Origin: Chrysochromulina tobinii
Lineage: Eukaryota
Direction of reading: 5' to 3'
Assembly: GCA_001275005.1 (NCBI GenBank)
Contig: JWZX01003251.1
Span: 1-53,933, forward strand
Length of the DNA: 53,933 nucleotides
Shown: positions 12,220 through 43,300 of the stretch, one piece after another
Layout of the letters: every line of letters starts with the position of its first letter
Position numbering within the stretch: position 1 is the stretch's first letter
Notes under the pieces: model-generated
What the model was told of the DNA's origin: nothing
Databases searched by the model: none
What the model saw: the letters and a program-made list of their open reading frames with translations, nothing else
Position numbers and translations under genes: made by a program

Positions 12220-14515
12220 CTACGACTCGCCGGTTTTGACTAGCACGCACCCGACCTCAGCGAGCGCGCGCGCCACGTCGAGTCGCTGAGCGTCCGAGTC
12301 GCAGGGAAGCTTGGCGACGCTCACAAACTTGGGGTACGACGCGAGCACGTGCTCGAGCGCGGGCGCCGCCTCGATGGCAAAATCAATCTTATCGGGCTCA
12401 TCCCTCTCGCGGTAGATGCGCGTGTTCTGGGCGCTGTGGTACAGGGCGGCGACCTCGAGGCCGTCCGCGCCGCCTCCCTCGACAGCTAGGCGCGCGACGC
12501 GTCGGGTGGTGAGCCGAATCTTGCTCGCGAGGGTCACCTGATTGCGGCAATCAGCGGCAATCAGATGCAATCAGATGCAATCAGAGGCAATCAGGTGAGC
12601 CGAATCTTGCTCGCGAGGGTCACCTGATTGCGGCAATCAGCGGCAATCAGATGCAATCAGAGGCAATCAGGTGAGCCGAATCTTGCTCGCGAGGGTCACC
12701 TGATTGCGGCATTCAGCGGCAATCAGCGGCAATCAGCGGCAATCAGCGGCAATCAGGTGAGCCGGATCTTGCTCGCGAGAGGCACCTCCTCCGGCGAAGC
12801 CGGCAGGCGCGACGCGTCGGCGGGCGCGTGTGCGATCGGTAGGCGCTCATGAATGTAACGCTGGCAGCAGAACATATCGGCCATACCATCGAGCGGCATG
12901 TGCTCGACAAGGTCGTGCAGCATTGCACGCAGGCGCGCCTGAATCGCCGCTCGGCGCAGCGCGTGCTCCGTCACCTCCGGCGCCGCGCCTGCAAGGGGCA
13001 GCCCAAAGGCGACTCATCAGTGGCAATCAATGGCCATCAGTGGCCATCAGTGGCCATCAGTGGCCATCAGTGGCCATCATTGGCAATTACCTGCAGGGGG
13101 CAGCCCAAAGGCGACTCATCAGTGGCAATCAGTGGCCATCAGAGGCAATCAATGGCCATCAGTGGCCATCAGTGGCCATCAGTGGCCATCAGTGGCCATC
13201 AGTGGCCATTACCTGCAGGGGGCAGCCCAAAGGCGACTCTCGCACGCTCGAGCTCCGCTGGGTCGAAAGGCAGGTGGCCATTCGCGGCGTCCTCGGCGGC
13301 GGTGGCGGCGGCGTGGGCAGCAGCGGCGGCGGCGTCGCCCTCCTCGTCGTTGGCATGCAGCAGCCCAATCCGATCGAAGAGGTCAGGTGGAAGGGTTTCG
13401 CGCCAACTCGGCTGGGCCACCGTCAGGGATTCCATGGCACCGAAGACGCCGAACTCAAGGAGATCCCTCCACGTGTGCTGACGACCGAGTGAGGCGGTGA
13501 CGTGGAGCGACGGGTGCGTCTGCGCGGCCGCCTGGTGCACGAAGCCGCGTGGAAGGTACAGCAGGTCGCCGGGACGCAAGGTCACCTGCCCGATCAGGCG
13601 GCCGAGCTCGTCGGGGAGCAGATTGGGGCTCGAGAAGCGCGGCAGCGCCTCATCGGAGGTGCGGGGGGCGTAGACACGCCACTCCTTGGTGCCCTCGAGC
13701 TGCAGCACGAGCGCGTCGATGTCGTCCCAGTGCGGTGCGAACCCCTGGCTGCCCGCCGGCGTGAGGTACGCATTCGCGCCCGCCATACACCCGAAGAGCT
13801 CCTCAAGCTGAGAGAGCATCCTCCATAGAGGGTCCGACCGACGCTGGGGCCACGAGAAGCGGATGGAGCAGCCCTCGGCGTAGCGCTTCCACACCTCCTC
13901 GGGCGTCGCGATCCCTTCGCCGTTGTGCGTCGTGCGCACGCCCCCTTCATACCGCGCAGCGTCCACCTCGTCCGTCCAGCGCATCCCTCCCTCACGGATT
14001 TGGCGCTCCATCTCGGCGCGCGAGAACCAGCCGTCGTAGTAGGTGCGATCGGTGCGCGCCACGTGCAGCGGCCGTCGGCCGTAGATCTCCTTTAGGAACG
14101 TCTCCGCACTCACCGGCCCGACGAGCCACGCGAGAAACTTTAGAGCCTTGTCGGAACGGTCGGGCATCGAGGCGATCTCCGGGCCCGTCTGGCCAATGAA
14201 GGCGCGGTCGTCGGTGACTGTCTCGAGCATCTCGGAGACTTCTGGCGCGGTCTCGATACCCCAGGCACGATCGGTGGAGGACGGCTCCTTATCCTGCTGC
14301 AGCTGCTGATGTGCCTTCTTCTTCTTGCCCTTGGGAGCAGCGGCGGCGGCGGCATCGCCGGATGGTGAGGACGTCGTCGTCACGGCGGACGGTGCCGCCA
14401 CTAGCCCTGGGGGTGGCGCCTCCTCATAGTCTTCGTCCCGCGAGCGCTTGAGCTCCTTCTTTGGCTTCTTTGGCTTCGGCGCCGGGGCGGGCAAGATCGG
14501 CGATGGCTTCGGCAT
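12220..14515 (-). CDS. RIOX1: Ribosomal oxygenase 1 / NO66 (JmjC, Cupin_4); exons 14515-13213, 12988-12786, 12537-12220
   Basis: GANAYLTPAGSQGFAPHWDDIDALVLQLEGTKEWRVY, LRPGDLLYLPRGFVHQA, SLHVT and YIHERLP motifs, plus a C-terminal ALEHVLASYPKFVSVAKLP. Introns are phase 1 and phase 0 and keep the frame. Confidence 0.9.
12538..12785 (-). other. 248-nt intron made of three units (86, 76, 86 nt), each a 30-nt copy of the downstream exon plus decamer satellite ending in CAG
   Basis: GGTGAGCCGAATCTTGCTCGCGAGGGTCAC (+ strand) at 12508 (exon), 12594, 12670 and 12756 (27/30 match), separated by (GGCAATCAGC)n-type repeats. Confidence 0.88.
12989..13212 (-). other. 224-nt intron made of two units (122, 102 nt), each GTAAT plus decamer satellite plus a 27-nt copy of the upstream exon end
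   Basis: CTGCAGGGGGCAGCCCAAAGGCGACTC (+ strand) at 13213 (exon), 13091 and 12989 (1 mismatch), separated by (TGGCCATCAG)n. Confidence 0.9.
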
Positions 14516-14660
14516 CGTCGCGACCACGTGGATGCTGTGAGTGTGAACGTTAACACGACAGACGCGACTACCGGGGCGACGGCACTGTTACTGCCTGCTC
14601 AGAATATACACACCTTACATGAGTGTGAAGAAAAGTTTTTCGTCCTTCCACCAACACATT

Positions 14661-16186: not shown

Positions 16187-19100
16187 TTAGCTCGCCTCCT
16201 CCTCTTCTCCATCCCCGCCCCCTCCTGCGCCCGTGAGCATCCCATCGGTCAGCGCCATGGCGACGTTGAGCATCGCCGTCTCGACGGTGCCAACCACCTG
16301 CTTGATCGTGCTGCGCGTGCGCCGCTCGGTGCGCGTCATGCCGTCCCATTGATTGAGGAGATTGTGGAGCTCCCTCTGTGACTTGTTGAACGTCTCCACC
16401 TGCTTGTCCAGCCGTGTGAACTCGATGGCCGACTTGCACACAAACCCCACCGCCACAGTGAGCGCAACGTACGGCGCGAGCTCTTGTCGCAGGCCGACCA
16501 TGACGGCGCTCAACGAGGAGACCACGAAGATGGCCACCTCAAGGCACTGCAACTCAAAGGAACGCCATGGCGCGGTCTTCTCAATGTACGCTAAGATCGG
16601 GCGGGCACGGAACTGCATGTAGTCGTCGATGTTCAGCGAGGTCATCATGTCGTCCTTGACGCGGACCGCGCCGCCGCCCTGTTCAACATCTGCGCCCGGT
16701 GCGGCGGCGGCCTGGCCAGTGCCGTCCTCTTCGAGATAGCGCGTCTCGAGGCGCTCGCCACGCGGGAGCGCCGTGATGAGCGCTTTCTCGCCGTGGCCCC
16801 CACCGCCCCTGCCTCCGTCCTCGACAGAGAGGGCTGTGGCCGCCACGTGCAGGCCGTCCCGTAGAACGTCGGCCGCCACGTGCAGGCCTTCCCGTAGAAC
16901 GTCGGGCGCGAGGGCCGTCTTGCTGGCCCAGCGCTTCATCTGTCTCACCAGGCGCTCCGCTCGTTTCCCGCCAGAAGCAGTTTGGCCTTCGGACGAATGG
17001 ATTTGATTGTCGAGATCTTTCGAGCCGGCGCCTTTCAATGAAGTCGCCGCCTCCTCCTCGTCCACCTGGCGCTCGATGATGATGCGAGTCCAGACGAGAC
17101 CGGAGAGGCACTCGGAGATGCGCCCGACGCTCAGGACGACCGCCCCGGCCGTGGAGACGACGACCCCAGCCACGGTACCCGTCAGTCCCGAGTACGTCCT
17201 CCGCAGATAGCGTCGCGTTGCATTGCCTGACGCAGCATTCGCGAGGTCCTTTTCTTTCCTGACGACCTCCGCCGTGAGCGCCCACTCGCGCAGCGTGACG
17301 AAGTAGATCCTCGAGGCCACGTGACGCTGCAGCGCCTCCAGCGTCTTGCGTTGAGCATCGCCGTCCACCTCGTCGACGAGAAGCCGCGAGGCGTCCAGCC
17401 CACCCGGGAGCGCGCCACCGATCCCCGTCCTGTGGGAAACCGACGCGCCCTTGCTCAACTCCGACTCTGTACTCGAGTAGATCAACTGGACGCGCTGCAC
17501 GAAGATGGTGCGAGCGAGCTTGTCCTTTACCTTGGCGGAGATGGGCGCGACCGGCTCATCGTCGCTCTTCTTCTTCTTATCGGCGGGTCCCTCCTGCGTG
17601 GCACGCATCGCCTGTGCGAGTTTCTGCCCATCGTATTCCATCGAGCGCGTGCGGAACTTGTAGATCTCGGAGACGAGCTCGTGCGAGGCCATCTTGGCGA
17701 CCGAGAACTTTTGGCGCTGGCGTAGGCGCGACGAGATCGTGCCGAGCAGCGCCACGAAGATGGGCAGTACGAGCATACCCGCGTCCAGGATCCAGATGTT
17801 TGACAAGGCCGGGATCTGCGAGATGACCGAGAGCAACGTCGTCAGCAAGCCGAATACGTAGAGGATACACTGCATCGTCCACGAGCGCAGGTTGTACACT
17901 TCGGCATTGTTGAAGAGGACCAGATGCCGGCTCCACGCGGTGGCGACCACCTTGATCTCAGCGTTGCCCAGGCCGAGTTCGGGGGGCGAGCCTGCGCTCG
18001 AGAAGCAGTTGGTGAACAAGTCGAGGAGCGACTCAGCCGAGCGCTTCATCACATCGGCCGTCTGGAACTGCTTCATCACAAAGTCGGGCGAGCGCTGCCA
18101 GATCTCGAAGAGCATGAGCGCCTCGGGGAGGCCAAAAGAACGCATCCAGTGCTCCGAGTGCTCGCCCGCCGAGAGGAGCAGGTCGACGCGCGCGAGCTCC
18201 TTGTCGAGCAAGATGATGTTGTCCAGGGCGAGCTTGCGGTTCTCCTTGGTCATGCGCTCCTTGCGCACATTCCTGGCCGCGCGCTGCTTGTACTCGGTGA
18301 TCAGGCGCATCACGAAGTCGATGTCCCACTTGGGCTTCATCAGGCGCACGGCCTTGATGATGTAGCTGAAGGCCTGCGCGATGCCGCCCGTCGATTCGAG
18401 CAGCAAAAAGGGCGAGCCCTCTTGGATGAAGTCGACGATCTTGCGGTGCTCGGCGGTGCTGCCGTGCATGAAGATGGCGCCGATCGTGCCGAGGACCGAG
18501 ATGATGGGCTTCGCCTTGAAGTCGACCGAGTCGAAGATGATGTAGTTGGTGCCGCTCGCGAAGAGCTGGGCGTCGTAGAAGATGCGCCAGATGCGCCCGA
18601 TGATCGGGCGCCGATCGGGCTGCAGGTCGACGTCGTACTGGTACTCGCGAAAGATCTCGATGACGCGCTTGCACATGCCCGGGTGGTTTGGATGCGAGTC
18701 GATGAGCTGCACCGTTTGATCGAGCTCCTGCGCCGAGGCACGCAGCCACGCGAGGCCCGCGGGCGTCACCAGCCTGCGCAGGTCCGCACGCGGCGTCGCG
18801 TAGTCAATGCTGGTCAGCTTGTACTCGGTGACCTTCTGCTCTTCAGGCGCGTCCAACTTCTTGTAAGCGAGCTCCTGGTCGATGAGAAACTTGCACTCGA
18901 TGAGCGCCTGGAGCATCGCCGCGGCGCGCTCGAGGCGTGGGCGCGAGTCCATCACGACCACCTTCGGGTTCAACCCCGTGTTGCCGCGCAGCGCGATCTC
19001 GATCATGAGCTCGGCCGTGGGCGACGAGTTCTGATTCTTGTCGATGACCAAGAAGACCTGGGAGAAGGTCGCGTAGTCGATGAGCACGGAGAAGACGTTC

Positions 19101-22100
19101 TTGAGGCGCTGGAAGGCGAGCTTGCTCGCTAGGGACGGGTCGAGCATCGCCGCGTTGTCCTTCTCGATGAGCGGATCGTACCGATCCCATGGCAACGTCG
19201 CCGCCCGCGGCAGCAGCGGCGGCTCGCCGTCATTCTCGACACCGAAACGTTCCGAGCCCGACGAGCTTGGCTTCTTGGACGACGACGGGCGCGCCGCCGG
19301 CGGCTTCTTCGGTGCGCTCATCGGCTGCGGCGCCGGACGGTACTGGCTGAACCCGGGCTTCCACAGGGGGTAACGGCTTTTCGTCTCAATCCAGAGCTCA
19401 AGGATCTCGTCCTTTGTCAGGTCCCGTGGCCAGATCCACGCCTGTGCGAGCAGCCCCGCCCCCTTGCTCGACGTGACGAGCCGGCGGATCTGCACACTCG
19501 CGTCCATCTCGGTGCTCACATACGTGGCGGGGCGCTTTGGCTCGGGCAAAAGAGCGCGTGCCGGCTGTGGCGCCCCCTTAGTGTCGATCGAATGGTACCC
19601 GATCCAGAACTGCGATTCTCGGCCGTCGTTGGTGACCACAAGCAGGCACCAGTTGTCGCCGGCGAGGCGTGGGTCGAAGTCAGTCGCGCAGAAGACGTTG
19701 TCGACGAGTGCGCCGAGTTGGTTGTTGCGCACGAGCGCGGGCATGTTGCGAGTCTCTCCGAAGAAAAGGAGTTGGTCCGAGAGAGATTCAATCGGCCGCC
19801 ATTTGATCCAGTATGCGAACGTGTAGCAGAGCGTGTCCTTAGTGGGCATGTACGCGAGCGCAGTCGACATGAGCCGCATCGTCGTCCCGCCATTGCCGGC
19901 AGCGTGCATCCCCGCATCATTCCCTGATGAGAGCGTCGTCGGTTGCTGATTCAAGTGAGAGGCGACGGGGGCGGCATCGGCTCTTTGTTTGCTCGCTTTC
20001 TCACTTGTATCGGCCGAGTCGGCAGGCACATTTACCGGCCTGGGCGCGCGTACCCCCGCCGTCGTTCCCACGACGTCGCGCAACGCCAAGCGGCTCCACC
20101 GGTTCGACTTGGCGTTGATCGGCTTGGCGGGATCCTCGCCTGCAGCTGCCTCGGCCGCCTCTGGAACCGCCATAGAGTCAAGCGACGCCTTGCGGCTCCG
20201 GCTCGGCTCGGCTTGATCCTCGCCTGCAACTGCATATCTGTAAAGGGCGGGGGTGCTCATGAGACTTGCCTCGACCGCCTCCGGGACCGGAATCGACGGT
20301 GCCGTGGGTTGCAGTGGCCGCGCTCCTGTTGGCTGCGGTTGACTGCCGGATTCCATATCGGGCGTCTTCGAACATGAGGAGGAGGCGTTCGACCCCTCGC
20401 GTGATGCGTTCGCGTTCGGCGATGGCGTGCGACGGCTCCTCGCGTTCGGCGGCTCATCGGGTGGGCTGGGCGGCGGCGTGGGCTCACTCCCACTTGTTGA
20501 TGTGGGCCATCCAGGCACGACTGGTACCGGGCCACGTCCCGCCACCACGTCCCGCCAGCCGGGCTCGAAGAGCGACGGCGGCTCACGCACGCCCGACTGG
20601 CTGAGCGGGTTGTCCTCTGCCATGCTCGCCATGCTCGGCTCTATCGACTCGCCATCTTCGTAGGGTGATGTCCACTGCGTCTTGGTACTGCCGTCCTCCG
20701 TGCAGTAGTAGTAAGTTCGCCCATCCGGGGCAGTCGCCTCAGACCATTGCGGAGAGAGCCCGTACTTGCTGCGAGACGATGAGGATGCCGTGGCACGCAA
20801 CGCACACCCAGCAGATCCACCGCGTGTAGAGCAAGCCCCGACTCCAGCGCCAGCATCATTAGTTGTGTCGTCCTCTCGAGGGCTCGGGAGCGTGCTTTCC
20901 ATCTTGCTCCCCTTTTTCCGAATCCCGAGACTCTCGGGCGGTCGGATGGCGATGCGCAACATGACGACGCCCACTGGCACCTCCACTCTGGAGATGTCCT
21001 CCTCCTCCTCCTCCTCCTTAGTGTCCTCGAGCTCCTCGTCAATGGGCCCCACTTTACTCAGGCTCATACGTCTCAGACTGGCCCAGCCACTGCCAGTGGC
21101 ACTGGGTGAGAGGCTCACGACGCTCCCGACGCTCGAGCGTGCGAGCTGTGGAGGAGCCTTGTGGGGTGGAGGCAGCGCCTTGGGCGCAGGTGAGCCCTTG
21201 GGCGCCATCTCCTCAAAGCCCATCAAGTCAAATGCCATGTCCATCTCGCACGTGCCGTTATTGTTGGGCTTGCCGTCGCGCAGCAACTCCTTGAGGCTGA
21301 TCTTGGTGATGCCGATGAACCCTTTGAGTTGGGCCGTGCCCTTACGGTCCGTGATGTACCACTTGCGTCCTTGCTTGTTGGCCACGATCAGCTTGATGGT
21401 CACGTCGGAGCTCGATGGGTCGACATCTTCGAGGATCTGCGTGAGCTCGAGAGTCTCGGCCTCGCTGTTTTCGGTGCGGTACCGGCGCTCGATTTGATCG
21501 TGAGCACGCCCCTTGAAAGTGCTGAAGCCCTTCCTGAGCGGGTACGGCTCCGAAAGGTGCTCGGGAGGGTTGTCGCCAGGGATCATGCTCTCGACGAGAA
21601 CGAGCGCATCGCCGGCTGCAAACTCGGGGCCCATGGCGGCGAGGATCTTCAAGCCTATCTCGTTGAGGCGCGAGCTCTTAATCTCAAGGCGCACCTCACC
21701 TCGCTCGAGCTCCCGCTCCTTTTCGTTCTCGGCGCGCCGAATGTCGTGGATCAGCATCAGGTTCGTCATTCGGAGCCAGCTGCGCAGATTCTTTGGGCGT
21801 GTCGTCTTCACGAGATGCTTCGAACGCGCCTGGAGCATCGACTGCATCGTCGGGTTGTTTTCCTTGAGCGTGATCCATTGGTCCTTCATACCCTGGTACC
21901 ACTCATCGTAGCTCTGCCGCATGTTGCCCACGTATTGCGTCTGCTGCGGCAGCACGCCCCCCGGCGTGACCGCCTGCTTCACGTTCAGGTCCCAGTAAAA
22001 CACACCGTCGTCGTCCTTGATGGCCACCTGCTTGCCCAGGGGCTGATGCGTGACGGCGTCCATGATCCACTCGTTGTTGACGCGGTCCATCTTACCGATG

Positions 22101-22651
22101 AGCTCGGCGTCGTCCTGAGCTTGCAGCGACGCGTCGATGAACAGCGTGTGCGGTGGCTTGAATGTGAACTCAGGCATCTGGTAATGTGGGCCAACAAAGA
22201 ACGCGGGGTAGCGCCACGCGTTGACCGCTGCCATCCAGCCCTCCACAGGGTCGCGCTGCCCATCAAAGTAATCATCGTTGAAACGCGGACGCGACTGGAG
22301 AAAGTCTTTTCGCTGCTCGCGCAAGCCTTTGTCCTGAATGAGGTGCATCGGATGCTGCGAACCGCCGTGCACGGTGAGAGACATGGCCGGTATCTCCAGC
22401 TCCCACACCTTGATCGCATTGAGCATCCACAAGCTGTTCTGTCCCTTGGGATTCGTTTCATGATTCGGGTCCGTCTCTGGCACCCAGTACATTGGGTGAG
22501 GCATGTCCTTGATGGCCTCGGTTGGAGGATTCTCGTAGTCGAGGGCATTTGCACGGAGCTCTGCAATGAGCTGCGCCTTGAGCGACTTGAAGCGCTTGGT
22601 GTTCTGCGACTCGAACGAGGACTGGAACTCTTCGACCTCTTCGACCGACAT
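16187..22651 (-). CDS. 2154-aa multidomain protein: split TRPM-type SLOG, C2-like, WW, LamG-like and two SLATT 2-TM domains
   Basis: Uninterrupted ORF. SLOG motifs WELEIPAMSLTVHGGS and IGAIFMHGS...SPFLLLESTGGIA; WW motif WSEATAPDGRTYYY...TQWTSP; SLATT motifs ASHELVSEIYKFRTRSMEY and LNIDDYMQFRARP. Confidence 0.85.
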   Translation of the reverse strand: MSVEEVEEFQSSFESQNTKRFKSLKAQLIAELRANALDYENPPTEAIKDMPHPMYWVPETDPNHETNPKGQNSLWMLNAIKVWELEIPAMSLTVHGGSQHPMHLIQDKGLREQRKDFLQSRPRFNDDYFDGQRDPVEGWMAAVNAWRYPAFFVGPHYQMPEFTFKPPHTLFIDASLQAQDDAELIGKMDRVNNEWIMDAVTHQPLGKQVAIKDDDGVFYWDLNVKQAVTPGGVLPQQTQYVGNMRQSYDEWYQGMKDQWITLKENNPTMQSMLQARSKHLVKTTRPKNLRSWLRMTNLMLIHDIRRAENEKERELERGEVRLEIKSSRLNEIGLKILAAMGPEFAAGDALVLVESMIPGDNPPEHLSEPYPLRKGFSTFKGRAHDQIERRYRTENSEAETLELTQILEDVDPSSSDVTIKLIVANKQGRKWYITDRKGTAQLKGFIGITKISLKELLRDGKPNNNGTCEMDMAFDLMGFEEMAPKGSPAPKALPPPHKAPPQLARSSVGSVVSLSPSATGSGWASLRRMSLSKVGPIDEELEDTKEEEEEEDISRVEVPVGVVMLRIAIRPPESLGIRKKGSKMESTLPSPREDDTTNDAGAGVGACSTRGGSAGCALRATASSSSRSKYGLSPQWSEATAPDGRTYYYCTEDGSTKTQWTSPYEDGESIEPSMASMAEDNPLSQSGVREPPSLFEPGWRDVVAGRGPVPVVPGWPTSTSGSEPTPPPSPPDEPPNARSRRTPSPNANASREGSNASSSCSKTPDMESGSQPQPTGARPLQPTAPSIPVPEAVEASLMSTPALYRYAVAGEDQAEPSRSRKASLDSMAVPEAAEAAAGEDPAKPINAKSNRWSRLALRDVVGTTAGVRAPRPVNVPADSADTSEKASKQRADAAPVASHLNQQPTTLSSGNDAGMHAAGNGGTTMRLMSTALAYMPTKDTLCYTFAYWIKWRPIESLSDQLLFFGETRNMPALVRNNQLGALVDNVFCATDFDPRLAGDNWCLLVVTNDGRESQFWIGYHSIDTKGAPQPARALLPEPKRPATYVSTEMDASVQIRRLVTSSKGAGLLAQAWIWPRDLTKDEILELWIETKSRYPLWKPGFSQYRPAPQPMSAPKKPPAARPSSSKKPSSSGSERFGVENDGEPPLLPRAATLPWDRYDPLIEKDNAAMLDPSLASKLAFQRLKNVFSVLIDYATFSQVFLVIDKNQNSSPTAELMIEIALRGNTGLNPKVVVMDSRPRLERAAAMLQALIECKFLIDQELAYKKLDAPEEQKVTEYKLTSIDYATPRADLRRLVTPAGLAWLRASAQELDQTVQLIDSHPNHPGMCKRVIEIFREYQYDVDLQPDRRPIIGRIWRIFYDAQLFASGTNYIIFDSVDFKAKPIISVLGTIGAIFMHGSTAEHRKIVDFIQEGSPFLLLESTGGIAQAFSYIIKAVRLMKPKWDIDFVMRLITEYKQRAARNVRKERMTKENRKLALDNIILLDKELARVDLLLSAGEHSEHWMRSFGLPEALMLFEIWQRSPDFVMKQFQTADVMKRSAESLLDLFTNCFSSAGSPPELGLGNAEIKVVATAWSRHLVLFNNAEVYNLRSWTMQCILYVFGLLTTLLSVISQIPALSNIWILDAGMLVLPIFVALLGTISSRLRQRQKFSVAKMASHELVSEIYKFRTRSMEYDGQKLAQAMRATQEGPADKKKKSDDEPVAPISAKVKDKLARTIFVQRVQLIYSSTESELSKGASVSHRTGIGGALPGGLDASRLLVDEVDGDAQRKTLEALQRHVASRIYFVTLREWALTAEVVRKEKDLANAASGNATRRYLRRTYSGLTGTVAGVVVSTAGAVVLSVGRISECLSGLVWTRIIIERQVDEEEAATSLKGAGSKDLDNQIHSSEGQTASGGKRAERLVRQMKRWASKTALAPDVLREGLHVAADVLRDGLHVAATALSVEDGGRGGGGHGEKALITALPRGERLETRYLEEDGTGQAAAAPGADVEQGGGAVRVKDDMMTSLNIDDYMQFRARPILAYIEKTAPWRSFELQCLEVAIFVVSSLSAVMVGLRQELAPYVALTVAVGFVCKSAIEFTRLDKQVETFNKSQRELHNLLNQWDGMTRTERRTRSTIKQVVGTVETAMLNVAMALTDGMLTGAGGGGDGEEEEAS

Positions 22652-22971
22652 GGTAAGGAGCGGTCGGCCTGCGCCTCGGATCGCTGCTGCCCCGCGCTAA
22701 GCCCTGCGCCACGTGCACGAAGCGCGCGGCGGCGCGCTGAGCGCACGACGGGTGGTTGGCCTGTTTGCGAACCCGCTACGCCCGTTAGCGAGAAAATTGC
22801 ATGCCATCTCTTCCACGCACCCTCACACACCAACCCCGTTTCTCAGCGGGGTTGTAGACTCACTGAGCTCTGGGGTGTGTCTGATAACTGTCTGATGACG
22901 GCTGATGACAATCGAGAGTGGGCGTGAAGCTTTTGAGCGAGCGCTTCTTCGGAAGGCTCACGCCGGGGAGG

Positions 22972-25900
22972 ATGGTTGGCACTCCGTTGCACATGGACAC
23001 GTCACTGCCGCGCACGATGGCGCGCATCCGCCGCTTGGTGCGCGAGAACCCCAACGATCGCGAGCTACAGCGGCTCCTGCACACCCTCCTCACTTCGATG
23101 TCATCTGAGCGCGTCGACGAGGGCGAGGTCAACAGCGTGCTCGCTCAGATGGAGCAGCGCAAGAGTCGTCAATCTCTCGAACCGCAAAAGTCGCCGCCAC
23201 TCACGGGCTGCCTAAATGGCCTTCGAGCGCTCGGCGACAGCCGTGAAGGCAGGGCCGTTGCCTCGCCACTTCGCTTGGTACCGGGGCAGGCTTTGACACC
23301 CAGCCCCGGCTTTGGCACCCACTCCGCGACCATCACGCCCGCGCAGCCGCGCCGTGCCAACTGCCACCCCTTCGAGGAGGACACTTCGGGGACGATCGCC
23401 CGTGCTGCAGCTGCCATCGCCACCGCTGAGCGTCAGCAGAGGGCGTACGCAGACGAGGTACACACTCTTCACGGTCGACACGGCGACACCTCGTCGGCCT
23501 TTGCGCCTTTACCCTCACTCGCGCCTGCTGCTCCAGCTCCTCCGGCGTCTGCCGGCGCCTCGCCGCTCACGACGGCGCCTCTAGCGCTCACGACGGCGCC
23601 TCTAGAGCCTTCGCGGTCGCAGCCCACGTGCGCATCTCTCCGGCGGCTCACCGGTACCGCCCCGACCAGCAGCGCATGCGTCCCGACCAGCAGTGCATGC
23701 GCCCCGATCAGCAGGGGAAGCGAGCCGTCAGTTGGGCCGTCAGTTGGATCGGCAGTTGGCTCGCCAGAGAGCCAGAGTGTCTGCGCGCACTTTGCCTCTG
23801 GCGGCGGCGACGACGGCGATAGTGGCGGAGGCGGCAGCGCCGAGCTCGGCACAGCAGCGCCGGAGGAGGCCGCCAGCCTCACCCTATTCGAGCCCGGTGC
23901 GGCGCTCAGCGGCGGCTACTGGTCAGCACAGCGCCATGAGCAGTCGCTCGAGGTGATGCGCCGTCGGCAAGAGCAAGCGCTGACGGCGCTCCGCCAGAAG
24001 AGCTTCCGCGACGCGCGACAGGCGCAGGCGCAGCATGAGTACGCGATCGCCCAATTGCGCCGCCAATCGGAGGAGCAGTTGGGCGCCGCGGCCGAGGCGA
24101 GGCGGGCCGAGGCGAAGCGCGTCGACGGGCTCGCTCAGAAGCTCGGCGAGGTGCAGGCGAGATTGAGGCGGCTCGAGGCGCAGCAGCCGTTGGCCGTTGT
24201 CGGCGGCAGCAGTGCCCGCTGGAGCGGCGAGAGTGTGGATGTGAAAGGTGCCTCCGCCGGCGACGTGCCGGGGCTTGAGGGAGAGCTAGCGGCGGAGCTG
24301 CGCGCGATGGCCCATTCACACCGTATCGAGCTCGGAGCCAAGGAGAAGGCCGCCGCCGCCGTCCTCGAGCGCGAGGTGGCGCATCGGGAGCGTGCCCTCG
24401 CGAGCCTCGAGGCGGGCTTCGCCGAGGAGCGGGCGGAGCTCGAGGGGAGATCGACGAAACTCGGGGCTCGTGTCAAGGAGCTCGAGGCCCAACAGCAAAA
24501 GGCGCTCGAGGCGTTCAAATCGCGCGCCGAGGTGGCCGAGAGGGCGCTCGAGGCTGAGCGATCTGAGCGGCGCGCGCTCGAAGAGAACTTCAGCGCGGCG
24601 CAGCGGCAGTGGAAGGCGGGGCAGGCGGAGGAGGCGCAGCGGCGCCAGCGGGAGGATGACGCGCTCGTGGACGATGTGATGACGCGCAGGCGGCAAGAGA
24701 TGCTGGCCGAGGCGCGCAAGCAGGCGCGCTCGGAGCTGTGGGAAGAGGCGCGACGATCGGCCAAGGAGGAGCTCGAGGGTGCGAGATTGGAGCTCGAGGC
24801 GGAGATGCTCGCAAGGCGGTCGCTCTACCGCGAGAATGAGGAGGCGCGCGCGGCGGCGGAGGCACGCACCGAGGCGGCCGAGGCGGCGGCGTCGCGTGCC
24901 AAGGCGGCTGCGAGGGAGGAGGGCTTCGCGGAGGGGCGCGAGGCAGCGTGGCGCGAGGCGCGCATGATCGCTCGGCTCGAGATGGAGGAGGAGATGAAGC
25001 GCGCGGGGGCCGAGCAGGCTGTGGCGGCCGAGGTGAAGCTGCGTGAGCTCGAGCAGGCACGTACCCAGGTGCATCTCCAGCTCGCCGAGGCTGAGAGGGC
25101 GATGTCGATCGCGGTTCAGGATGCAAGGGAGGAGGCGATCGCGCAGACGCGGGCGAAGGCGTATGAGGAGGCGAGGGAGCAAGTTCAGGCCGAGTGGGCA
25201 GGGCAGCAAGGAGGCGCGCAACAAGGTTGGCCCTCCGCCGAGGGCGCCGGCGTGGGCGGCGCCGGCATGGAACCCTCAAGCCCAAGCGCGCCTGCGACCC
25301 CAGAAGGGTCCCATGCTGGTGGCTTGACCGGCCCCGCGCCCAGCCCTGGGCCAAGCCCTGGCTTCGGCTCGAGCCGCATGCTGGACGCGGTGAGTCGTCT
25401 CGCCGAGAGCGAGCAGCGCGCGTGGGTGTCGGAGGTGGAGAGGACGGTGCAGCAGCGCCAGATGCTCAGCAAGGCTCAGGAGGTCTCGCAGGCGATCGGC
25501 GCTGAGATGCGTCGCGCCAGGGAAGCCATCATCGCCGAGTATGGTCCTGGTATCTTCGACAGCGCAGCCGCCTCCGGGGCCGTGGCAGATCTTCCCACAC
25601 GAGCCCTCGGCCTCCTCGCCGCCGCCGCCGCGCCCGCGGCCCGCAACGCCGACGAGCTGCAGCTGGAGCATTCCTCGGAGGTGATGGAGGAGCTCATTAA
25701 GGCGAAGGGCAAGCTCCGGCAGCGAGATGAGGCCCTGCGCGAACGAGATCTCGAGCTCGCCGAATTGCGAGCGCAATTAGAGGGCCTGCGGCTCAAGGCG
25801 GCGCGTGCGGAGCGCAAGGCGTATGCCCACGAGGTACAGGTGGCGATGCGCGACCAGAGCGCCGCCGCTACCACCACCACCGCCACCGCCGCTACCACCA

Positions 25901-27279
25901 CCACCGCCACCGCTCCCGCCGCCGCCGCCGCCACCGCTCCCGCCAGCCCCGCCGTCGGCGGGTTTGCCATCGCCGCCTCTCCCTCCGCGGGACCAGAAGC
26001 GGCGCGTTTTGGGTACCCTAGCCTCCCGGCGCCACCCCCTGCCTACCCAGAGCCTACGCCTGACACCGAGCCGCTCGATGCGCCGCTGAGCTCTGGGGTT
26101 GGCGAGGTGCAGTCGGCCGCGCCGCCGCCCGCTGCTGAGGACCCTTACGGGTACGCGACGACCAGGGCGGCCGCAGAGGCCGTGTTTGCCGACGGGTACG
26201 CCGAGGCCGAGGGTGGTGCTAGTGGGGACGCCGTGCCGGGCGTGTCGGATGGCTTGGCCGGGCTGGGTGAGCCACCCTCTGAGCTCCCGCCCGTGCCTGT
26301 TGTGAAGCCGCGGCTGCCGCCGCCGCCCCCGCAGGTGGTGGCGGCACGCGGCGAGTTCCCAGCCCCTGGCTTTTTCTGCGCCCCCGCATCGGATGCTCCT
26401 TACGCCGCCACAGCGCCCCTTACCCCGGCTGCCGCTAGCGCCCTGGCCGCGCCGCCCTCACCGCCTCTGCCCGAGCAATCACCATCGCAGAAGGTCTCCG
26501 ACTCCCCCCCTGGCTCCTCGGCCGCCCCGACCGGCTCCTCGGCCGCCCCGACCGGCTCCTCGGCCGCCCTGACCGGCTCCTCGGCCGCCCCATCCGGCTC
26601 GTCGGCCGCCCCGACCGGCTCCTCGGCCGCCCCATCCGGCTCGTCGGCCGCCCCGAAACCCGGGAGCTCCGGCCCCACTGCGGCGACGCGGCCAGCCGCG
26701 CAGAAGCCCTCTCCCAAACAGTCCAAGCCGGACGGCGGACTCAGAGCGGCCATCGAGGCAGGCGCGTGGATGGCCGAGGTGCTCGGCATAGCGCCTCCCC
26801 CCGAAGCGGCCGACGTGGAGGGGCACCATGCGCTGCTGCATGCCTGGCTACGCTCGGGCGAGCTCCTGTGCGAGCTCATCAACAAGCTGCAGCCCGGCAC
26901 AATCTCGCGCGTCTCCTCGAGCGCCATGCCCTTTAAGCAGATGGAGAACATCTCGAACTACATCGAGGCATGCGCGGCGCTCGGCGTGCCCAACCAGGAC
27001 TGCTTTCGATCCGTCGACCTTTTCGAGGGCAAGGACCTGCGCGCGGTCGTGCGCAACATCCATTCGCTCGGACGCGTCGCGCAGCGCCTCGAGGGCTTCC
27101 ACGGGCCCACCCTCGGCGCCAAGCTCGCTGAGAAGAATGAGCGCTCCTTTACCGAGCAGCAGCTCAGCGAGGCGAAGGCGATGCCCGCGCGCTGGTCCAA
27201 CGTTGGAAAATCGATGCCGTCCGCGGACGCGCCAGTCCAGCCGCGGCCACAGGCGGCCGGCATGCGGCGCGGGCCTTGA
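22972..27279 (+). CDS. Long coiled-coil protein with a C-terminal calponin-homology (transgelin/calponin-type) domain
   Basis: LRSGELLCELINKLQPG...PFKQMENISNYIEAC...GVP...FRSVDLFEGKDL...VVRNIHSLG and GPTLGAKLAEKNERSFTEQQL. First ATG at 22972; an upstream exon is possible. Confidence 0.82.
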   Translation: MVGTPLHMDTSLPRTMARIRRLVRENPNDRELQRLLHTLLTSMSSERVDEGEVNSVLAQMEQRKSRQSLEPQKSPPLTGCLNGLRALGDSREGRAVASPLRLVPGQALTPSPGFGTHSATITPAQPRRANCHPFEEDTSGTIARAAAAIATAERQQRAYADEVHTLHGRHGDTSSAFAPLPSLAPAAPAPPASAGASPLTTAPLALTTAPLEPSRSQPTCASLRRLTGTAPTSSACVPTSSACAPISRGSEPSVGPSVGSAVGSPESQSVCAHFASGGGDDGDSGGGGSAELGTAAPEEAASLTLFEPGAALSGGYWSAQRHEQSLEVMRRRQEQALTALRQKSFRDARQAQAQHEYAIAQLRRQSEEQLGAAAEARRAEAKRVDGLAQKLGEVQARLRRLEAQQPLAVVGGSSARWSGESVDVKGASAGDVPGLEGELAAELRAMAHSHRIELGAKEKAAAAVLEREVAHRERALASLEAGFAEERAELEGRSTKLGARVKELEAQQQKALEAFKSRAEVAERALEAERSERRALEENFSAAQRQWKAGQAEEAQRRQREDDALVDDVMTRRRQEMLAEARKQARSELWEEARRSAKEELEGARLELEAEMLARRSLYRENEEARAAAEARTEAAEAAASRAKAAAREEGFAEGREAAWREARMIARLEMEEEMKRAGAEQAVAAEVKLRELEQARTQVHLQLAEAERAMSIAVQDAREEAIAQTRAKAYEEAREQVQAEWAGQQGGAQQGWPSAEGAGVGGAGMEPSSPSAPATPEGSHAGGLTGPAPSPGPSPGFGSSRMLDAVSRLAESEQRAWVSEVERTVQQRQMLSKAQEVSQAIGAEMRRAREAIIAEYGPGIFDSAAASGAVADLPTRALGLLAAAAAPAARNADELQLEHSSEVMEELIKAKGKLRQRDEALRERDLELAELRAQLEGLRLKAARAERKAYAHEVQVAMRDQSAAATTTTATAATTTTATAPAAAAATAPASPAVGGFAIAASPSAGPEAARFGYPSLPAPPPAYPEPTPDTEPLDAPLSSGVGEVQSAAPPPAAEDPYGYATTRAAAEAVFADGYAEAEGGASGDAVPGVSDGLAGLGEPPSELPPVPVVKPRLPPPPPQVVAARGEFPAPGFFCAPASDAPYAATAPLTPAAASALAAPPSPPLPEQSPSQKVSDSPPGSSAAPTGSSAAPTGSSAALTGSSAAPSGSSAAPTGSSAAPSGSSAAPKPGSSGPTAATRPAAQKPSPKQSKPDGGLRAAIEAGAWMAEVLGIAPPPEAADVEGHHALLHAWLRSGELLCELINKLQPGTISRVSSSAMPFKQMENISNYIEACAALGVPNQDCFRSVDLFEGKDLRAVVRNIHSLGRVAQRLEGFHGPTLGAKLAEKNERSFTEQQLSEAKAMPARWSNVGKSMPSADAPVQPRPQAAGMRRGP
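26512..26655 (+). repeat. 21-bp coding tandem repeat (GSSAAPT x7)
   Basis: GGCTCCTCGGCCGCCCCGACC units with variants. Confidence 0.95.
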
Positions 27280-37347: not shown

Positions 37348-40300
37348 ATGCTGGCGCCCCTTGACCCGAACCAGGCCGGCTTTGGGTTCTCACCCAAGCC
37401 GCAGTATTCCACAGGTGACACGCCCCTCTGGGAGAATCCCATCTTCGCCGACGTCGTGCTCGGCCGCAGCCTCGATGACGGCAAGAGGGGCTTGCCGCCT
37501 CCGCCGAAGCTGACGGTTGGGTCACTCGTCGAGTCGATCAACCTGGTCATGTTCCAGACCCGATTTCTCTTTGAGGACCCGCAGACCGCGGGCGCGCTCA
37601 AGCAGACGCTCGGCAGGATCTACTCGGCGCTCGAGCGCGCGGCCGGGATGACCAAAACCTTTTCGGCCATTTCGGACATGTCAGGCTTCTTCGAGCTGCT
37701 CACGACCTTTGTGGCGCAGGTGAAGACGCTCACGCCTGGTGCGAGCATCATCGTGCCCGGCGGCTTCCAGGAGGGCTCGCTCAAGCGCGGCACGCACTCG
37801 CTCATGATGTACGTGCTCCACTGCGACTCATTCGAGGAGTTCACGCTCGCCATCTGCTCGACGGGCGACGGGCTCGAGTACCACCCGGCGCGGATCGACC
37901 CAGCGACGGGCGCGACGCAGTACAATTCGCCGCTGCTCCTGCGCAAGATCCCCGCGCACAAGATCCGTGACGGCTCAGTCTGGTTCGTCCTGCTGCGCGC
38001 CGCCCTCTTCCCCGACGCGAAGTACACGAGCGCGCTGCTCTACCAGACCGTGTACCCCTTCCTCAACAACCGGCCCATCCTCGCGAACCTGAGCTCGGTG
38101 GAAGCGACCGGTGGCGCGCAGCCCTCTCCTCCACCCTCCCTCCAGCAGGCCGGGCGCCCGCCGGTGCCGCCGATCCCCGCGCGTTGGCTCACGCCGCCGG
38201 CGACCGGCGACCCCTACGGACACGAGCTCGTCATGCTCGCGGCGACGGTGGCGCTCCAGCTCGCGGCGAGCGGCCAGTTTGGCGCGATGCCCCAGTACGG
38301 CGGCGGCTTCGGCGCCCCCTTTGGTGCCCCCCCGGCCGGCGGCGCGCCGCCTCTTGTGCCCTCGTACTCGTCCGACGGGGTTGAGCTGCTGCTTAAGCAG
38401 CAGCTTTTGAATCTGGGCGCGATGGACCTCAGGATGGCTCTCGAGAAGCACGGCAGTGTACCCGTCTCGGCCATCGAGCTCCTCTCCCGCGCCGCACGGC
38501 GCCTCTCCGCCTCGTCGCCGCGTCTCGCCTCTGGCGCGGCCACGCTGGCGCCATCGGACTTGCACGCGTTGCAGGGGGCTGTGGAGCGACTCGATGCGCA
38601 GCTGAACGCCGCCAAGGCCGCGGCGAACCAGCGGATGCCGCTGCCGCCGCCCGCGTCGCCTGAGCTCAAGGGCTCGGCGCTCTTCCCACTGCTCGATGAC
38701 GTGGCCGCCTCGCCGAACGTTGAGAATCTGGCGGGTGACGCGTACGAGCCACCGATCGTGATGCCGGTCGAGCTCACGGCGATCCCAGAGACGGTGGCCA
38801 ACTTTGCGGAGGTCTCGAACGCGCTGCAAAGGGCGTCCGAGGTGTGCACGATCCTCGCCAACCAGCGCGAGCTCGTGGCCGATTCGTACGCGCTCCGCGC
38901 CTCGTTGCTTGGTCACCTCTTCCTACGCGTGCTGCCGCTGCCGCTGCCCATCGGGCGTGCGGACCGCAAGATGCGCTGCTTCTGGGCCAAGTCCGGGCTG
39001 AAGATCACGCACGACACGCAAGCCGAGATCCTCCGTTGGCTCTTTGTGCTCGCGCGCCACTACTCTGCGGCCTCGCTCTCCATCCCCCTCGCGCCTCAAG
39101 CCGACGCGACGCGAATGTTGGTCTTCGCGGCCATCGTCGCGATCGCGGACGCGGTGCTGCGCCTGCGCGCGTGCGATGTGCCCTCGCACCTCTCGCTGCA
39201 CTACGCGGGCGAGAATGAGGGGCCGTCTAAGCCGTTTGCCCTCGAGATGCGCCACCTCGAGATCGAGACCGAGCGCGCGCAGTTCCCGTACCCGCACCTG
39301 GCCGCCTCGCGCACCATCCTTCTCGACTACTTCCGCTCGTGCTCGGTTGCGGCGTCTCCGGATCGGCACATCTTCCGCTTCGAGCGCACGATGGGGCTGG
39401 GCGAGGGCGAGCGCCAGCTGCTCACGCAGCTCTGCGCGCAGCTCGCCTTCCTTCGCACCGACAAGCACCTGTCCGCGTACCTCTCGAACGAAGATCCGAG
39501 CCTCGCCGAGCTCTACCCGGAACTGCTCGCTTTCCGCGACATCGTGTACCTGTGCAAGCTCATGACAGCGCCGTCTGCGGACAACCTGCCCGAGCTGCGC
39601 GCATGGACGCCCGCTGACGCGCGCCTCTCGTGGCGCTTCAAGGAGGGCACCCCCCCGGAGGAGCCCAAGAAGGGGGGCAGCAAGAAGGCGGCCTCGACCC
39701 CCCCCTCACCGGTGAGTTCATCGTGACCGGCTTCGGCGCCGAGATGAAGTCGATGACGTGGGTCGATTCCACAGGCGAGTACGCGGCCGCCAAGAATAAG
39801 TCGTTCCTCGACCGTCTGCTCGGCAAGGGTGGCTTCCGTCCGCGCCTGCCTCCCTCGTCCGCGGAGGCGAGCGTCCTCGCGGGCGCCAAGGTCGACACCG
39901 AGGATGACGTGCTGCACCTCCGCCACCTGCCGGATTTCGGGGGGGCGCTGCGCGCCTCGGATGTGGAGTACATGCTTCAGGCGCTGCTCGCTCCCTATTT
40001 GCGCGTGCCGCTGCTGCTTCGGTTCTTCGCCGACCCCATGCGCACTTCGGCCCTCGCAAAGCCCGAGCTGCAGCAGATGCTCGATGCGGCGCTGTACGAG
40101 CCCGGCGAGTGGCATCCCGATGTGCCCAAGGTGGCGCCGACGACGGTGCCCACCATGGATCGCTCGGTGCTCGCGACGCCCGCGGGCTTGCTCTTCAATG
40201 AGCTCACGCACTCGCCCGCCGCCTCGGTCGCCGCGATCGTCACCATCGTCGAGAACGCACTCGACCTCGATGCTGGTCGTTACGTCAAGGCGGGCTCGTC

Positions 40301-43300
40301 CTCGGCCATCCTGTACGCCATCCGGCTCGCTTGCCGCATCGAGGCGTTCCTCACGTACCTCCTCTCGCCAAAGGCGGATGAGGTCCGTGGGCTGCGCATG
40401 ATGAGCACGGCGGACTTTGGAGGCGTTTCGCCGGCCAAGACGAAGCTCCTGGCCGCGGCGAACACACTGCGCCGCAAGCTCATGGACCACGGCCTGCCTG
40501 TGCTGCAGGGCTGGTACGCGCGGCTGCGGCGCGATGGCATGTCCCGCGACGCGTGCACCGTGGCCGCACACATGGCCTTCATCTACGGCGACTACCCGGC
40601 CGTCAACGACACGCCCGCTGCGGCGCTCAAGACCGAGCCACTCCCTGGCACGCCGGAGGCGGCGGCGGCGGCGGCGGCGGGCGAGCCGTGTCCGGTGGAC
40701 GCGCGCTTCACGATGATGATGCTCTCGACGCGCGTGTTCCTCAACGTGAACCACGACTTCGAGATCGAGCCTGATGTGATGACGGGCTTGATGGGCGCGA
40801 GGACGCGCAAGGACCGTAAGCGCAAGGTGGAGGTCTCTGCCATGATGAACACCGCCATGGGTGAGCTCGGCTACGCGCCGCTCGATGTCTTCGACCTTTG
40901 GCAGCGCCACCTGCATCGCGTGCTCGCGTGGCTCAAGGCTAACCCCGAGCAGGCGTCCGACATCATGGAAGCCATCGTGCGGCTGCTCTCGGGTCGGGAC
41001 AAGGGCATCAAGACGCAGGGCGGCACTCGCCTCGTCACACGCGAGTGGGCGTCCATGAAGTTCACCGGCTGCGACGGCCGCTACATGCCCAACTCGGCGG
41101 CCACGGTGGCCAACCCCGCTCGCGCGGCCGTCGCGCGTGCGGGCTGGGGCTCGGAGAACGACGCGGAGGCCGACGCAGCGGCCAGAAGTGGCGGTTACGT
41201 CGCGTGGCTGCGTGTCAAGGTGTCCGCGGCTGCGGAGACGGAGATCAACGTGCAGCTCGGCGAGATGACCCTCAAGCGCCACCACATGCAGCTTCTGGAC
41301 GCGAGCGTGTGCGCACACCCCGACTTTGCAGCCGTCTTCGGTGACACCTCGACGCGCGGCCGCCATCAGTGCGCCGAGGTGAAGCGCTCGCAACGGCGCC
41401 GTTGGATGCGGCTGCTCGGCACGCGGCACGACGTCCAGATTTGGGATGCCGACGACCGCCCGCCCCCTTCGCCCGGCACGGCGTTGGTATCGGGGCTGCT
41501 CGCGCAATGGCTTGAGGAGACCCTCCGGCCGATCAAGGTGGCGGTGCCGTTGCTGGCCCACCCCGAGGCCCCGAGGCTTAACCTCGTCGAGGCGCACGAT
41601 ACGTATGCGAAGCTCTCCGTCGTCGTCGAAGGCGTCCTCAAGGAGCTCGTGATCTATCGATTCCCTGCCGTATTGAACGTGTTCAACGTGACCGAGCACG
41701 GGCGAAAGTGGGTTCGTGAGCTCGTGTACACCTCCGACACGGCGCGCTGCTACGGCGACCCGATCGCGGGCGGCGGCTTTCAGGGCGCCGTGGTGCGCAA
41801 GCCTCGTCCGCACTGGACGGCGGGCGATATGGCCGTGAGATCAGAGCCGCAGTCGACGCTCGTCATCATGCGCCAAGCGGCCAATGTCCAGGCGAACGCG
41901 CCGAATGCGACGCAGATCTTCGTGCCCACCCGGCAGCTCAACGGCATGATGCCCGAGGCTCTCCTCTCCCAATACCTCTTCTGGCGCGACTCGGCTGGTC
42001 AGACGCTCGTGGGCCACCCGATGCCAAAGGGCGACGAGGAGCAGGACTACACTGGGAAGGTCGTCGCCAAGGCCGAAGCGGCCAATGCCGCCGGCGGCGC
42101 GAGCGGCGCCGCCGCCGCCGGATCGCCAGAGCGCCCGATGCCAAAGGGTGATTCGAGCCAAAACCAACGGCTGCACCTCGCGGGCAAGGAAGAGGTCACG
42201 GTCACTTGCCAACGGGGTGGCTCCGTGATCCGTCGCACGCTGTGCGACGAGAAAGGCTCTCCGATCGCAGGCGAGTCCCGCCGACTCATCTCGACCCTCG
42301 GGGTGGACGCCTCGTCGCCCTATGGAAAGATGGTCGCGCTCCTCGAGAGGGTCGAAGACCTCGCGCACGTCCTCGTCTGGTCCCTGCCCCAAAAGGAGAT
42401 CGTGGACACCGCCAACAACCCGTTTGCGAAGGCGAGCCAGGCCATCGAGGCGGCCGCGACCGACACCCCCAGCGACAGCATGGCGGCAAACCCCTTTGCC
42501 AGCATGGCGGCCTCGGTGAGCAAGGGCGTCGCGGCCATCGCAGAGCAAGTCCAAGGCCCCGACAGTGAAGTGCCCGTCGGCCTCATCGAGCTACCTCGGC
42601 TCAATCTCGCCTTCGAGGCGAAAAAAGGACCCGACGGCCTCGTGCGCATGTACTCACGTGAGAACCCCGGCCTGTACATAGGGACGCTCGAGGGACCGCG
42701 CGCCTCGCACCTGCTCTCGGGACTGCCGCACGCCCTCGTGCTGCTCAACGAGGAGGGCGATGCCTCGGTGCTCCTCTCGGCGCTCGCCAAACCGATCCGG
42801 CTGGCCGACCCCGATTCGGCCCTCTCGGCGCAGATGCTGCTTGCACGCGCCTCCAAGAAATGGCTTTCGAACCTGCCGACCGTCACGCACTTTCTGTACA
42901 GCGTGCACCGCTCGCAAGCCTTCTTGACGCCGCCCACGCTATCGGCCACCCTCAACCTGCTCGTGCTCAAGTGGCTGGCGCGCGACTTCGAAGCGGTATT
43001 CCACTTGGCGCCCGCGTGCGCCGTCGACGGCGCCCTCTCGCCCGACGAGCTCCAGCTGTGGCAATGCGTGATGGCGCTCGAGGACGACGTCGAGCCCGAG
43101 GCGCACGCGTGCCGCCTTCGTCTCTCCCTCGCGACGCGATCGTGTGCGGCCATGGTGGCCGAGATCAATTGGACGGTGCCTCAGCAGCTCGCCCTCTACC
43201 TGAACAAGCTCCAGTTCATACCGGCGTCATGCCAGCTTGCGGCGCCCGACGAGCTCATCCTGCTGCGTGACTATGGCGCCGAGCTGCCCGAGACGCGCGC

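Follow-up and report, generated by a model that had tools for sequence, protein, structure and literature searches.

The window analysed here is a 53,933-nucleotide stretch from the alga Chrysochromulina tobinii (contig JWZX01003251.1, assembly GCA_001275005.1), and the gene under study lies on its minus strand at 16187..22651. It is an uninterrupted open reading frame (ORF) of 2154 amino acids within a stop-free frame from 22696 to 16187, its first Met at 22651, and its sequence marks the product as an algal member, with a split SLOG domain, of a bacterial-type SLOG-SLATT-SLATT membrane family. A preliminary description had recognised a SLOG domain and two SLATT modules within 16187..19120. 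That interval is the last 45% of the gene, its 3' end; the ORF extends beyond 19120 to 22651, and the SLOG starts ~3.2 kb upstream of the 19120 boundary. The SLOG motifs at 18530-18562, 18446-18484 and 18383-18403 on the minus strand, and the SLATT signatures at 17645-17689 in the first unit and at 16598-16627 and 16346-16402 in the second, lie where they had been described. The 2154-aa length, the split of the SLOG, a fifth hydrophobic helix and a mosaic of two paralogs had been missed.

The public NCBI gene models are wrong and divide the one gene in two, as a 520-aa protein identical to aa 1-511 and an 1185-aa protein corresponding to aa 970-2154. Contigs from four RNA libraries of three studies, which carry no strand or level information and may include DNA, span 29-30 of the 30 bins of the gene, and one is continuous from 19250 to 21810, over the break of the 520-aa model. 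No GT..AG ends were found among the joints listed for RNA-library contigs on the gene, and the only skip within the insert described below (20485-20933) is also present in four of four DNA runs and reflects the shorter linker of a paralog. The gene is best read as a single exon. Named members of the protein's cluster come from C. tobinii and C. parva.

The C-terminal part of the protein carries the two SLATT units. The first, of DUF4231 type, spans 17492..17971 (minus strand, aa 1561-1720), with transmembrane (TM) helices at 17801-17878 and 17720-17794; the second, of SLATT_1 type, spans 16271..16657 (minus strand, aa 1999-2127), with TM helices at 16475-16558 and 16415-16480. Hydropathy of the window protein placed TM pairs at aa 1592-1644 and 2032-2079 and an extra, fifth hydrophobic helix at aa 1822-1849 in the inter-SLATT linker (17105..17188, minus strand), and in both hydropathy and predicted models the TM pair of a SLATT unit precedes a helical part on the cytoplasmic side. 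Pfam SLATT_1 scored 28.1 bits on the excised C-terminal module (cut-off 26.3) and 23.1 bits, under the cut-off, on the whole window protein. Pfam DUF4231 matched the first module weakly and under its cut-off (E 0.0026), while NCBIfam SLATT_1 matched the window protein in two stretches at E 1.7e-9, with 37.7 bits against a cut-off of 41. Among close homologues at E up to 1, SLATT_1 was found in 16 of 16 and DUF4231 in 12 of 16, and a bacterial hidden Markov model (HMM) recognised the two units with E values of 1e-10 and 3e-11 (for 1,000 sequences). The SLATT residues E1662, R1667, Y2011, R2015, N2089 and E2124 are common to algal and bacterial proteins. The original proposal of two 2-TM SLATT-type modules is borne out by the TM pairs and by the score of the excised module. 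Matches to NCBIfam CT584, malate dehydrogenase and the like were dropped, as their scores were far under the cut-offs.

With a threshold of E 0.001, 669 relatives were recovered from 1.84 billion representatives, and the best 150 of the 669, which were listed, include many compact proteins with lengths of 800-950 aa. Members that carry a species name belong to Chrysochromulina or to the dinoflagellates Togula jolla and Polykrikos kofoidii. A scan of 42 distant relatives at E 0.01 or better found SLATT_1 in 22, DUF4231 in 11 and LSDAT_euk in 3, the best LSDAT match reaching 25.1 bits against a cut-off of 25.7. One family member, P0043, has N-terminal EF hands preceding the SLOG, which suggests a calcium input in another branch.

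With a compact member as query, we retrieved bacterial plasmid proteins, and both of the two scanned carry LSDAT_prok, DUF4231 and SLATT_1 above cut-off. HHalign joined the compact profile to one of them at 99.8% over 393 columns, in a colinear alignment that begins at the last SLOG strands and takes in both SLATTs, and an Atlas cluster with the LSDAT, DUF4231 and SLATT_1 families contains bacterial as well as eukaryotic members. The bacterial LSDAT_prok (PF18171)-DUF4231 (PF14015)-SLATT_1 (PF18181) fusions, e.g. WP_243803067.1 and WP_341472297.1, thus have the same three domains in the same order as the algal protein, in agreement with the kinship initially suggested, and, the fusion being already present in bacteria, SLOG-SLATT-SLATT is not an algal invention. 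The earlier picture of SLATTs standing in place of a TRP channel suggests an algal swap and needs correction in the light of the bacterial fusions. Pfam Ion_trans found no match on the window protein, whose 4-5 hydrophobic helices follow a SLATT arrangement. The bacterial fusions differ from the algal long forms in length (600-700 vs 2,050-2,250 aa) and in the inter-SLATT linker, which by the same measure is 33-38 aa in bacteria and ~180-280 aa, with the extra hydrophobic helix, in the long forms. This helix is found in 16 of 20 long forms and in none of 35 compact and 11 bacterial proteins. In addition, the algal SLOG is split by ~1,060 aa and too diverged for the Pfam cut-off, and the algal family is eukaryotic and multi-copy.

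A FastTree phylogeny was built from 69 sequences over 293 columns, with a bacterial sequence as its root. In this tree, the 20 long forms made up one clade with support 1.0, nested within 37 compact forms, and these 57 together had support 0.97. As only 12 of the sequences are bacterial (locus L011 was not part of the bacterial alignment), we name no donor. Word patterns with a dinoflagellate member as query gave a prokaryotic locus in 0 of 22 cases, none of 13 pattern matches on viral contigs was confirmed as a relative, and the search of viral structures had no match at E 0.001 or better and one SLATT-named row at E 0.28. Eleven further bacterial loci had no neighbour in common. At one bacterial locus (L005:4992-11867), the LSDAT-SLATT gene is followed by genes for a TPR-S protein and an LRR-Roc-COR protein, a possible conflict-system cluster; a STAND NTPase adjoins another, and a third has annotated toxin-antitoxin genes alongside. 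In the literature searched, neither an algal SLOG-SLATT-SLATT family nor a SLOG that is split was described, although the founding paper (Burroughs et al. 2015) may list algal members, and we came upon no functional test of a bacterial LSDAT-DUF4231-SLATT_1 fusion.

Because the window protein itself escapes Pfam, the identity of its SLOG was established through the compact relatives. The main body of the domain (17972..19144, minus strand, aa 1170-1560) aligns to the compact family at 100% in HHalign, and D1204, E1214, E1218, D1235, R1239, G1397 and T1421-G1423 are common to long and compact forms. Against the sequences of the PDB, the profile of the compact family (43 members) returned TRPM chains in 57 of 60 rows (best E 1.9e-5), matching them in an N-terminal and a C-terminal stretch, and also a LOG-family protein at E 0.77. 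The long-clade profile gave nothing significant there (one match, E 3.3), and the direct HHalign comparison of long-clade and bacterial SLOG was weak (29.6%, E 6e-4). The predicted model of the compact paralog P0069 has a predicted local distance difference test (pLDDT) score of 83.5; its best TRPM match in Foldseek was TRPM8 (E 7.6e-7), and full structural alignment gave Z scores of 16-19 to TRPM2, TRPM5 and TRPM7 and of 18.7 to the isolated TRPM2 MHR domain (root-mean-square deviation, rmsd, 4.9; 292 aligned). In this model, a single helix (aa 512-586) spans from the SLOG end through the first TM helix. By way of its compact relatives, then, the window gene is identified as encoding an LSDAT-type SLOG resembling TRPM MHR1/2 (LSDAT_euk, PF18139; e.g. 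TRPM2), the type originally proposed; the compact paralog has its predicted fold and motif order in common with those domains. Unlike TRPM, the algal protein lacks, according to Pfam, the six-TM TRP channel as well as any Nudix or kinase domain, and, unlike TRPM2, it lacks Arg358 and has two SLATT hairpin units as its membrane part. Outside the TRPM family, chain 6A of PDB entry 9nw3 (9nw3_6A; 256 aa, ciliary tip central pair) resembles the SLOG with a Z score of 12.8 (rmsd 3.8, 233 aligned), and such a chain makes non-immune uses of the fold plausible.

Comparison with the compact forms indicates that, in the long clade, the first strand and glycine loop of the SLOG are set apart from the rest. 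The compact HMM maps onto the window protein as two pieces, at ~aa 78-111 and 1169-2150. Eight of 11 long proteins show this two-piece match; in the remaining three, the gene call begins downstream of the N-terminal piece. In HHalign, residues 47-111 fall on compact aa 103-161 (E 3e-6, probability 88%) and the SLOG body aligns from compact aa 191 onward (100%), and, in a reverse search, the profile of the long-clade N-terminal piece recovered compact N-termini (best E 1e-5, 1,000 sequences). The N-terminal piece itself (22319..22513, minus strand, aa 47-111) comprises an edge strand, a helix, the first core strand and the Gly loop with the His-Pro typical of the family. Directly past this strand and loop follows the insert (19145..22318, minus strand, aa 112-1169), ~1,060 aa in place of ~30 aa in compact relatives. 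N-terminal piece, insert domains and body occur within a single ORF at 7 of 18 loci, the rest being truncated long forms or compact forms. A conserved insert of ~1,000 residues in a sensor's ligand loop would be structurally unusual.

The insert is itself composed of several parts. Its first part (21752..22318, minus strand, aa 112-300) is a conserved domain with no assigned fold, in which Pfam and NCBIfam found no match; the ratio of nonsynonymous to synonymous rates (dN/dS) is 0.14, and homologues average ~60% identity at aa 101-200. A second conserved region (21212..21709, minus strand, aa 315-480) is kept in long homologues; we presume it to be C2-like from its pattern, and the label had no backing from Pfam (E up to 1) or from PDB sequences. 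Light-harvesting-complex matches in this region were rejected, being a short Pro/Gly-rich stretch summed over repeats. Within a Pro/Ser-rich low-complexity linker of paralog A type lies a WW-like motif (20666..20758, minus strand; Pfam WW E 0.018, under cut-off), found in 2 of 16 homologues. A beta-sandwich of LamG/pentraxin fold comes last (19373..19819, minus strand, aa 945-1093; Atlas feature Laminin_G_3, score 0.96), and its model matches pentraxin with a Z score of 9.8 (rmsd 3.1, 127 aligned).

The family was found at 55 metagenome loci, which sort by identity into six classes or more (99, 84, 54, 51, 28 and 26%), so that it is multi-copy. Two near-identical paralogs, A (loci L016-L018; 2130 aa) and B (L014 and L015), both carry the full architecture. 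The A loci have the window's upstream 10 kb in common and a different downstream flank; the B loci have its downstream 7-11 kb in common and a different 5' end. With gapped and within-paralog polymorphic columns set aside, the window was of type A at all 575 fixed A/B sites between 22800 and 18845 and of type B at all 338 between 18009 and 16001, and it had no private site. The switch from A to B falls within the intervening block without a fixed A/B difference (18010..18844, 835 bp). The interval 16187..19120 of the preliminary description therefore contains real motifs but straddles a junction between two paralogs.

This mosaic probably arose when paralogs A and B were collapsed in assembly. 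All three A loci and both B loci retain their own flanks, contigs from DNA runs display both alternative flanks, and in an RNA-library contig (X18 record 25) the linker and the C-terminus are both of A type. Twelve other proteins span the core; their records, possibly from related samples, are not wholly independent. Ten were A throughout and one was B throughout; the remaining one (P0298) is mosaic-like, leaning to A on the left and being B on the right. The latter case favours a real A/B recombinant in the sequenced strain, as does the homogenisation of the SLOG body between A and B, where the synonymous divergence (dS) is 0.04 in comparison with 0.13-0.29 in other folded domains and shows that the paralogs exchange DNA. 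The intact flanks, the 11 pure proteins and a switch placed inside the sole identical block of a copy without private sites nevertheless leave a genuine recombinant unlikely. Contig ends of the A-downstream and B-upstream sides showed no overlap. Elsewhere in the window, a tandem repeat at 12508-12787 has more copies in L014 and is possibly a second assembly collapse.

What the protein does is approached through its parts. SLOG domains sense nucleotides, and SLATT proteins are membrane effectors that are needed for defence in some systems and predicted to form pores (10.64898/2025.12.03.692087, PMC6759353, PMC9503650, PMC13143021, PMC13276650). The SLOG of type I Thoeris binds 3'cADPR, the SLATT protein ThsH is the effector of type VII Thoeris, which makes cyclic ADP-ribose (10.64898/2025.12.03.692087), and ADP-ribose binds TRPM2 in the MHR1/2 cleft, where a beta5-alpha3 loop is named (PMC6759353). 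By analogy with these systems, we give a probability of roughly 55% to the window protein being a ligand-gated membrane pore, its SLOG sensing a nucleotide and its SLATT helices opening. The N-terminal piece would fold back into the SLOG body, leaving the insert attached at the glycine loop, next to the ligand cleft; that position rests on equating the TRPM2 beta5-alpha3 loop with the glycine loop at the insert site, which is our assumption. The ligand may be an NAD-derived nucleotide (ADP-ribose or a cyclic isomer) produced by an unlinked enzyme. Its arrival in the SLOG cleft would move or pull the long helix leading into the first TM helix, the SLATT hairpins of several oligomerised subunits would open and membrane permeability would change, and the inserted modules could supply a second input or set the location.

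Several results weigh against this pore reading. Pfam LSDAT_euk and LSDAT_prok found no match on the window protein, and among 16 close homologues LSDAT_prok gave weak matches in four (best E 0.021); of the profiles first put forward as a check, SLATT_1 was thus confirmed on the excised module, DUF4231 stayed below threshold and LSDAT failed. The N-terminal piece of the window protein on its own scored E 0.1-0.2 in HMMER (1,000 sequences) and was not significant against the bacterial alignment. A window model without this piece (pLDDT 74.5) matched TRPM weakly (Foldseek E 0.055), with TRPM absent from the top 50 rows of a wide structure search, a result that fits a missing core strand and does not prove reassembly. 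The phosphate-binding Arg358 of TRPM2 aligns to Gly1423, so that ADP-ribose binding is not implied. The fifth helix, if it is a single membrane crossing, would invert the second SLATT. TIR and cyclase genes were absent among the 32 other window ORFs scanned, as had been said of a cyclase, as well as among 20 ORFs beside the algal paralogs and among the 38 scanned of ~63 ORFs of 130 aa or more near bacterial relatives; linkage to a messenger-making enzyme is not expected in a eukaryote. Across three paralog pairs, dN/dS was 0.01-0.48 in all folded domains (SLOG body 0.10-0.35, N-terminal piece 0.23-0.28, LamG fold 0.01-0.24), with diversifying selection in no domain. Such purifying selection argues for function and gives no arms-race signal.

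A less probable alternative is that the SLOG no longer binds nucleotides and serves as a scaffold, the SLATT units being gated by the inserted modules or by protein partners. The place of the insert directly past the Gly loop and the altered canonical SLOG motifs, including Gly for Arg358, would suit this, as would the high constraint on the LamG fold (dN/dS 0.01 between A and B), the SLOG-like chain in the ciliary-tip structure and the precedent of the DRT10 SLATT, which operates without a SLOG. Polar cleft-type residues are retained in compact and long forms, however, the bacterial homologue likewise has Gly at the Arg358 position, and in the compact relatives, which have no inserted modules, the SLOG is the only candidate sensor. 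Less probable still is that the SLATT units form no pore but a bundle of hairpins that anchors the protein or shapes the membrane, and so brings a signalling scaffold to a flagellar or internal membrane. Structure comparisons of the models gave no match to a solved SLATT structure, and the second SLATT matched generic helical hairpins only (PspA, ESCRT-III, Z 7-9); the extra hydrophobic helix of most long forms and the EF hands fused in P0043 could be viewed similarly. A Z score of 7-9 is nonetheless the generic range for helical bundles according to the structure-alignment tool, and SLATT proteins are required effectors in the anti-phage systems tested in the literature. That the SLOG is a LOG-kind enzyme cleaving a nucleotide at the membrane, the TM part only localising it, is very unlikely: LOG-family structures match the P0069 model at Z 7.6-8.9 and the conserved His, Asp, Glu and Arg could serve in catalysis, but the match to the TRPM sensor domains is much closer (Z 16-19) and the LOG catalytic motif is not evident in the alignment.

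For the pore reading, the nearest functional comparisons are bacterial. Type VII Thoeris (TIR with the SLATT protein ThsH) and type I Thoeris (the SIR2-SLOG protein ThsA) share their two kinds of module, SLOG sensor and SLATT effector, with the algal protein. In the algal protein, sensor and effector are in a single chain, the SLOG is of LSDAT rather than STALD type, and the TIR gene of Thoeris is missing from the scanned ORFs of the window and those beside the paralogs. PADLOC had no match on the window protein. The DRT10 effector has a SLATT-type 2-TM unit in common with the algal protein and is otherwise unlike it, being a stand-alone SLATT-5 protein tied to a reverse transcriptase and a noncoding RNA; PADLOC RTasSLATT gave weak matches (E 0.02) in 1 of 12 queries, and no reverse transcriptase was matched in the window scans.

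As to the biological role, an antiviral or cell-death effector and routine ion signalling appear to us about equally probable. A SLATT gene of Gephyrocapsa huxleyi, which may or may not belong to this family, is reportedly regulated in opposite directions in protected and unprotected virus infections (10.64898/2026.09.30.755861). We consider doubtful the bolder proposition that haptophytes and dinoflagellates retained and expanded a bacterial-type immune effector and that, in one clade, a graft of ~1,000 residues of additional sensor modules into the ligand loop produced a two-input, Thoeris-like NAD-messenger cell-death pore against giant viruses; on that view the protein would also be a living eukaryotic case of the TRPM sensor domain joined to a membrane partner of bacterial type. 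If the protein were gated by TIR-type messengers, bloom-forming algae would own a bacterial-style membrane effector with a bearing on virus-driven bloom collapse, and the link between bacterial SLOG sensors and TRPM would gain a eukaryotic non-TRP example. The algal members, e.g. the compact paralogs of 800-950 aa, offer a eukaryotic handle on LSDAT-SLATT fusions, and users of this contig should note that it is probably chimeric and its public gene models wrong.

On the far side of the gene's 5' end, ~260 bp away and head to head with it, is a 1456-aa ORF with a C-terminal calponin-homology domain (22909-27279, plus strand), and the same head-to-head pair is seen in the paralog A loci. Further along the plus strand are a 2823-aa ORF with DUF3638 and DUF3645 domains (39618-48089) and a 1065-aa ORF that combines EF hands with a Vps62-like stretch and a C-terminal domain of adaptin type (48806-52003). 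A JmjC gene at 13199-14587 on the minus strand is presumably NO66/RIOX-like. The JmjC gene and a SHIPPO-repeat gene, together with others in the window (amino-acid transporter, AMP-binding, 2-hydroxyacid dehydrogenase and C2H2 zinc-finger), make this an ordinary nuclear neighbourhood.

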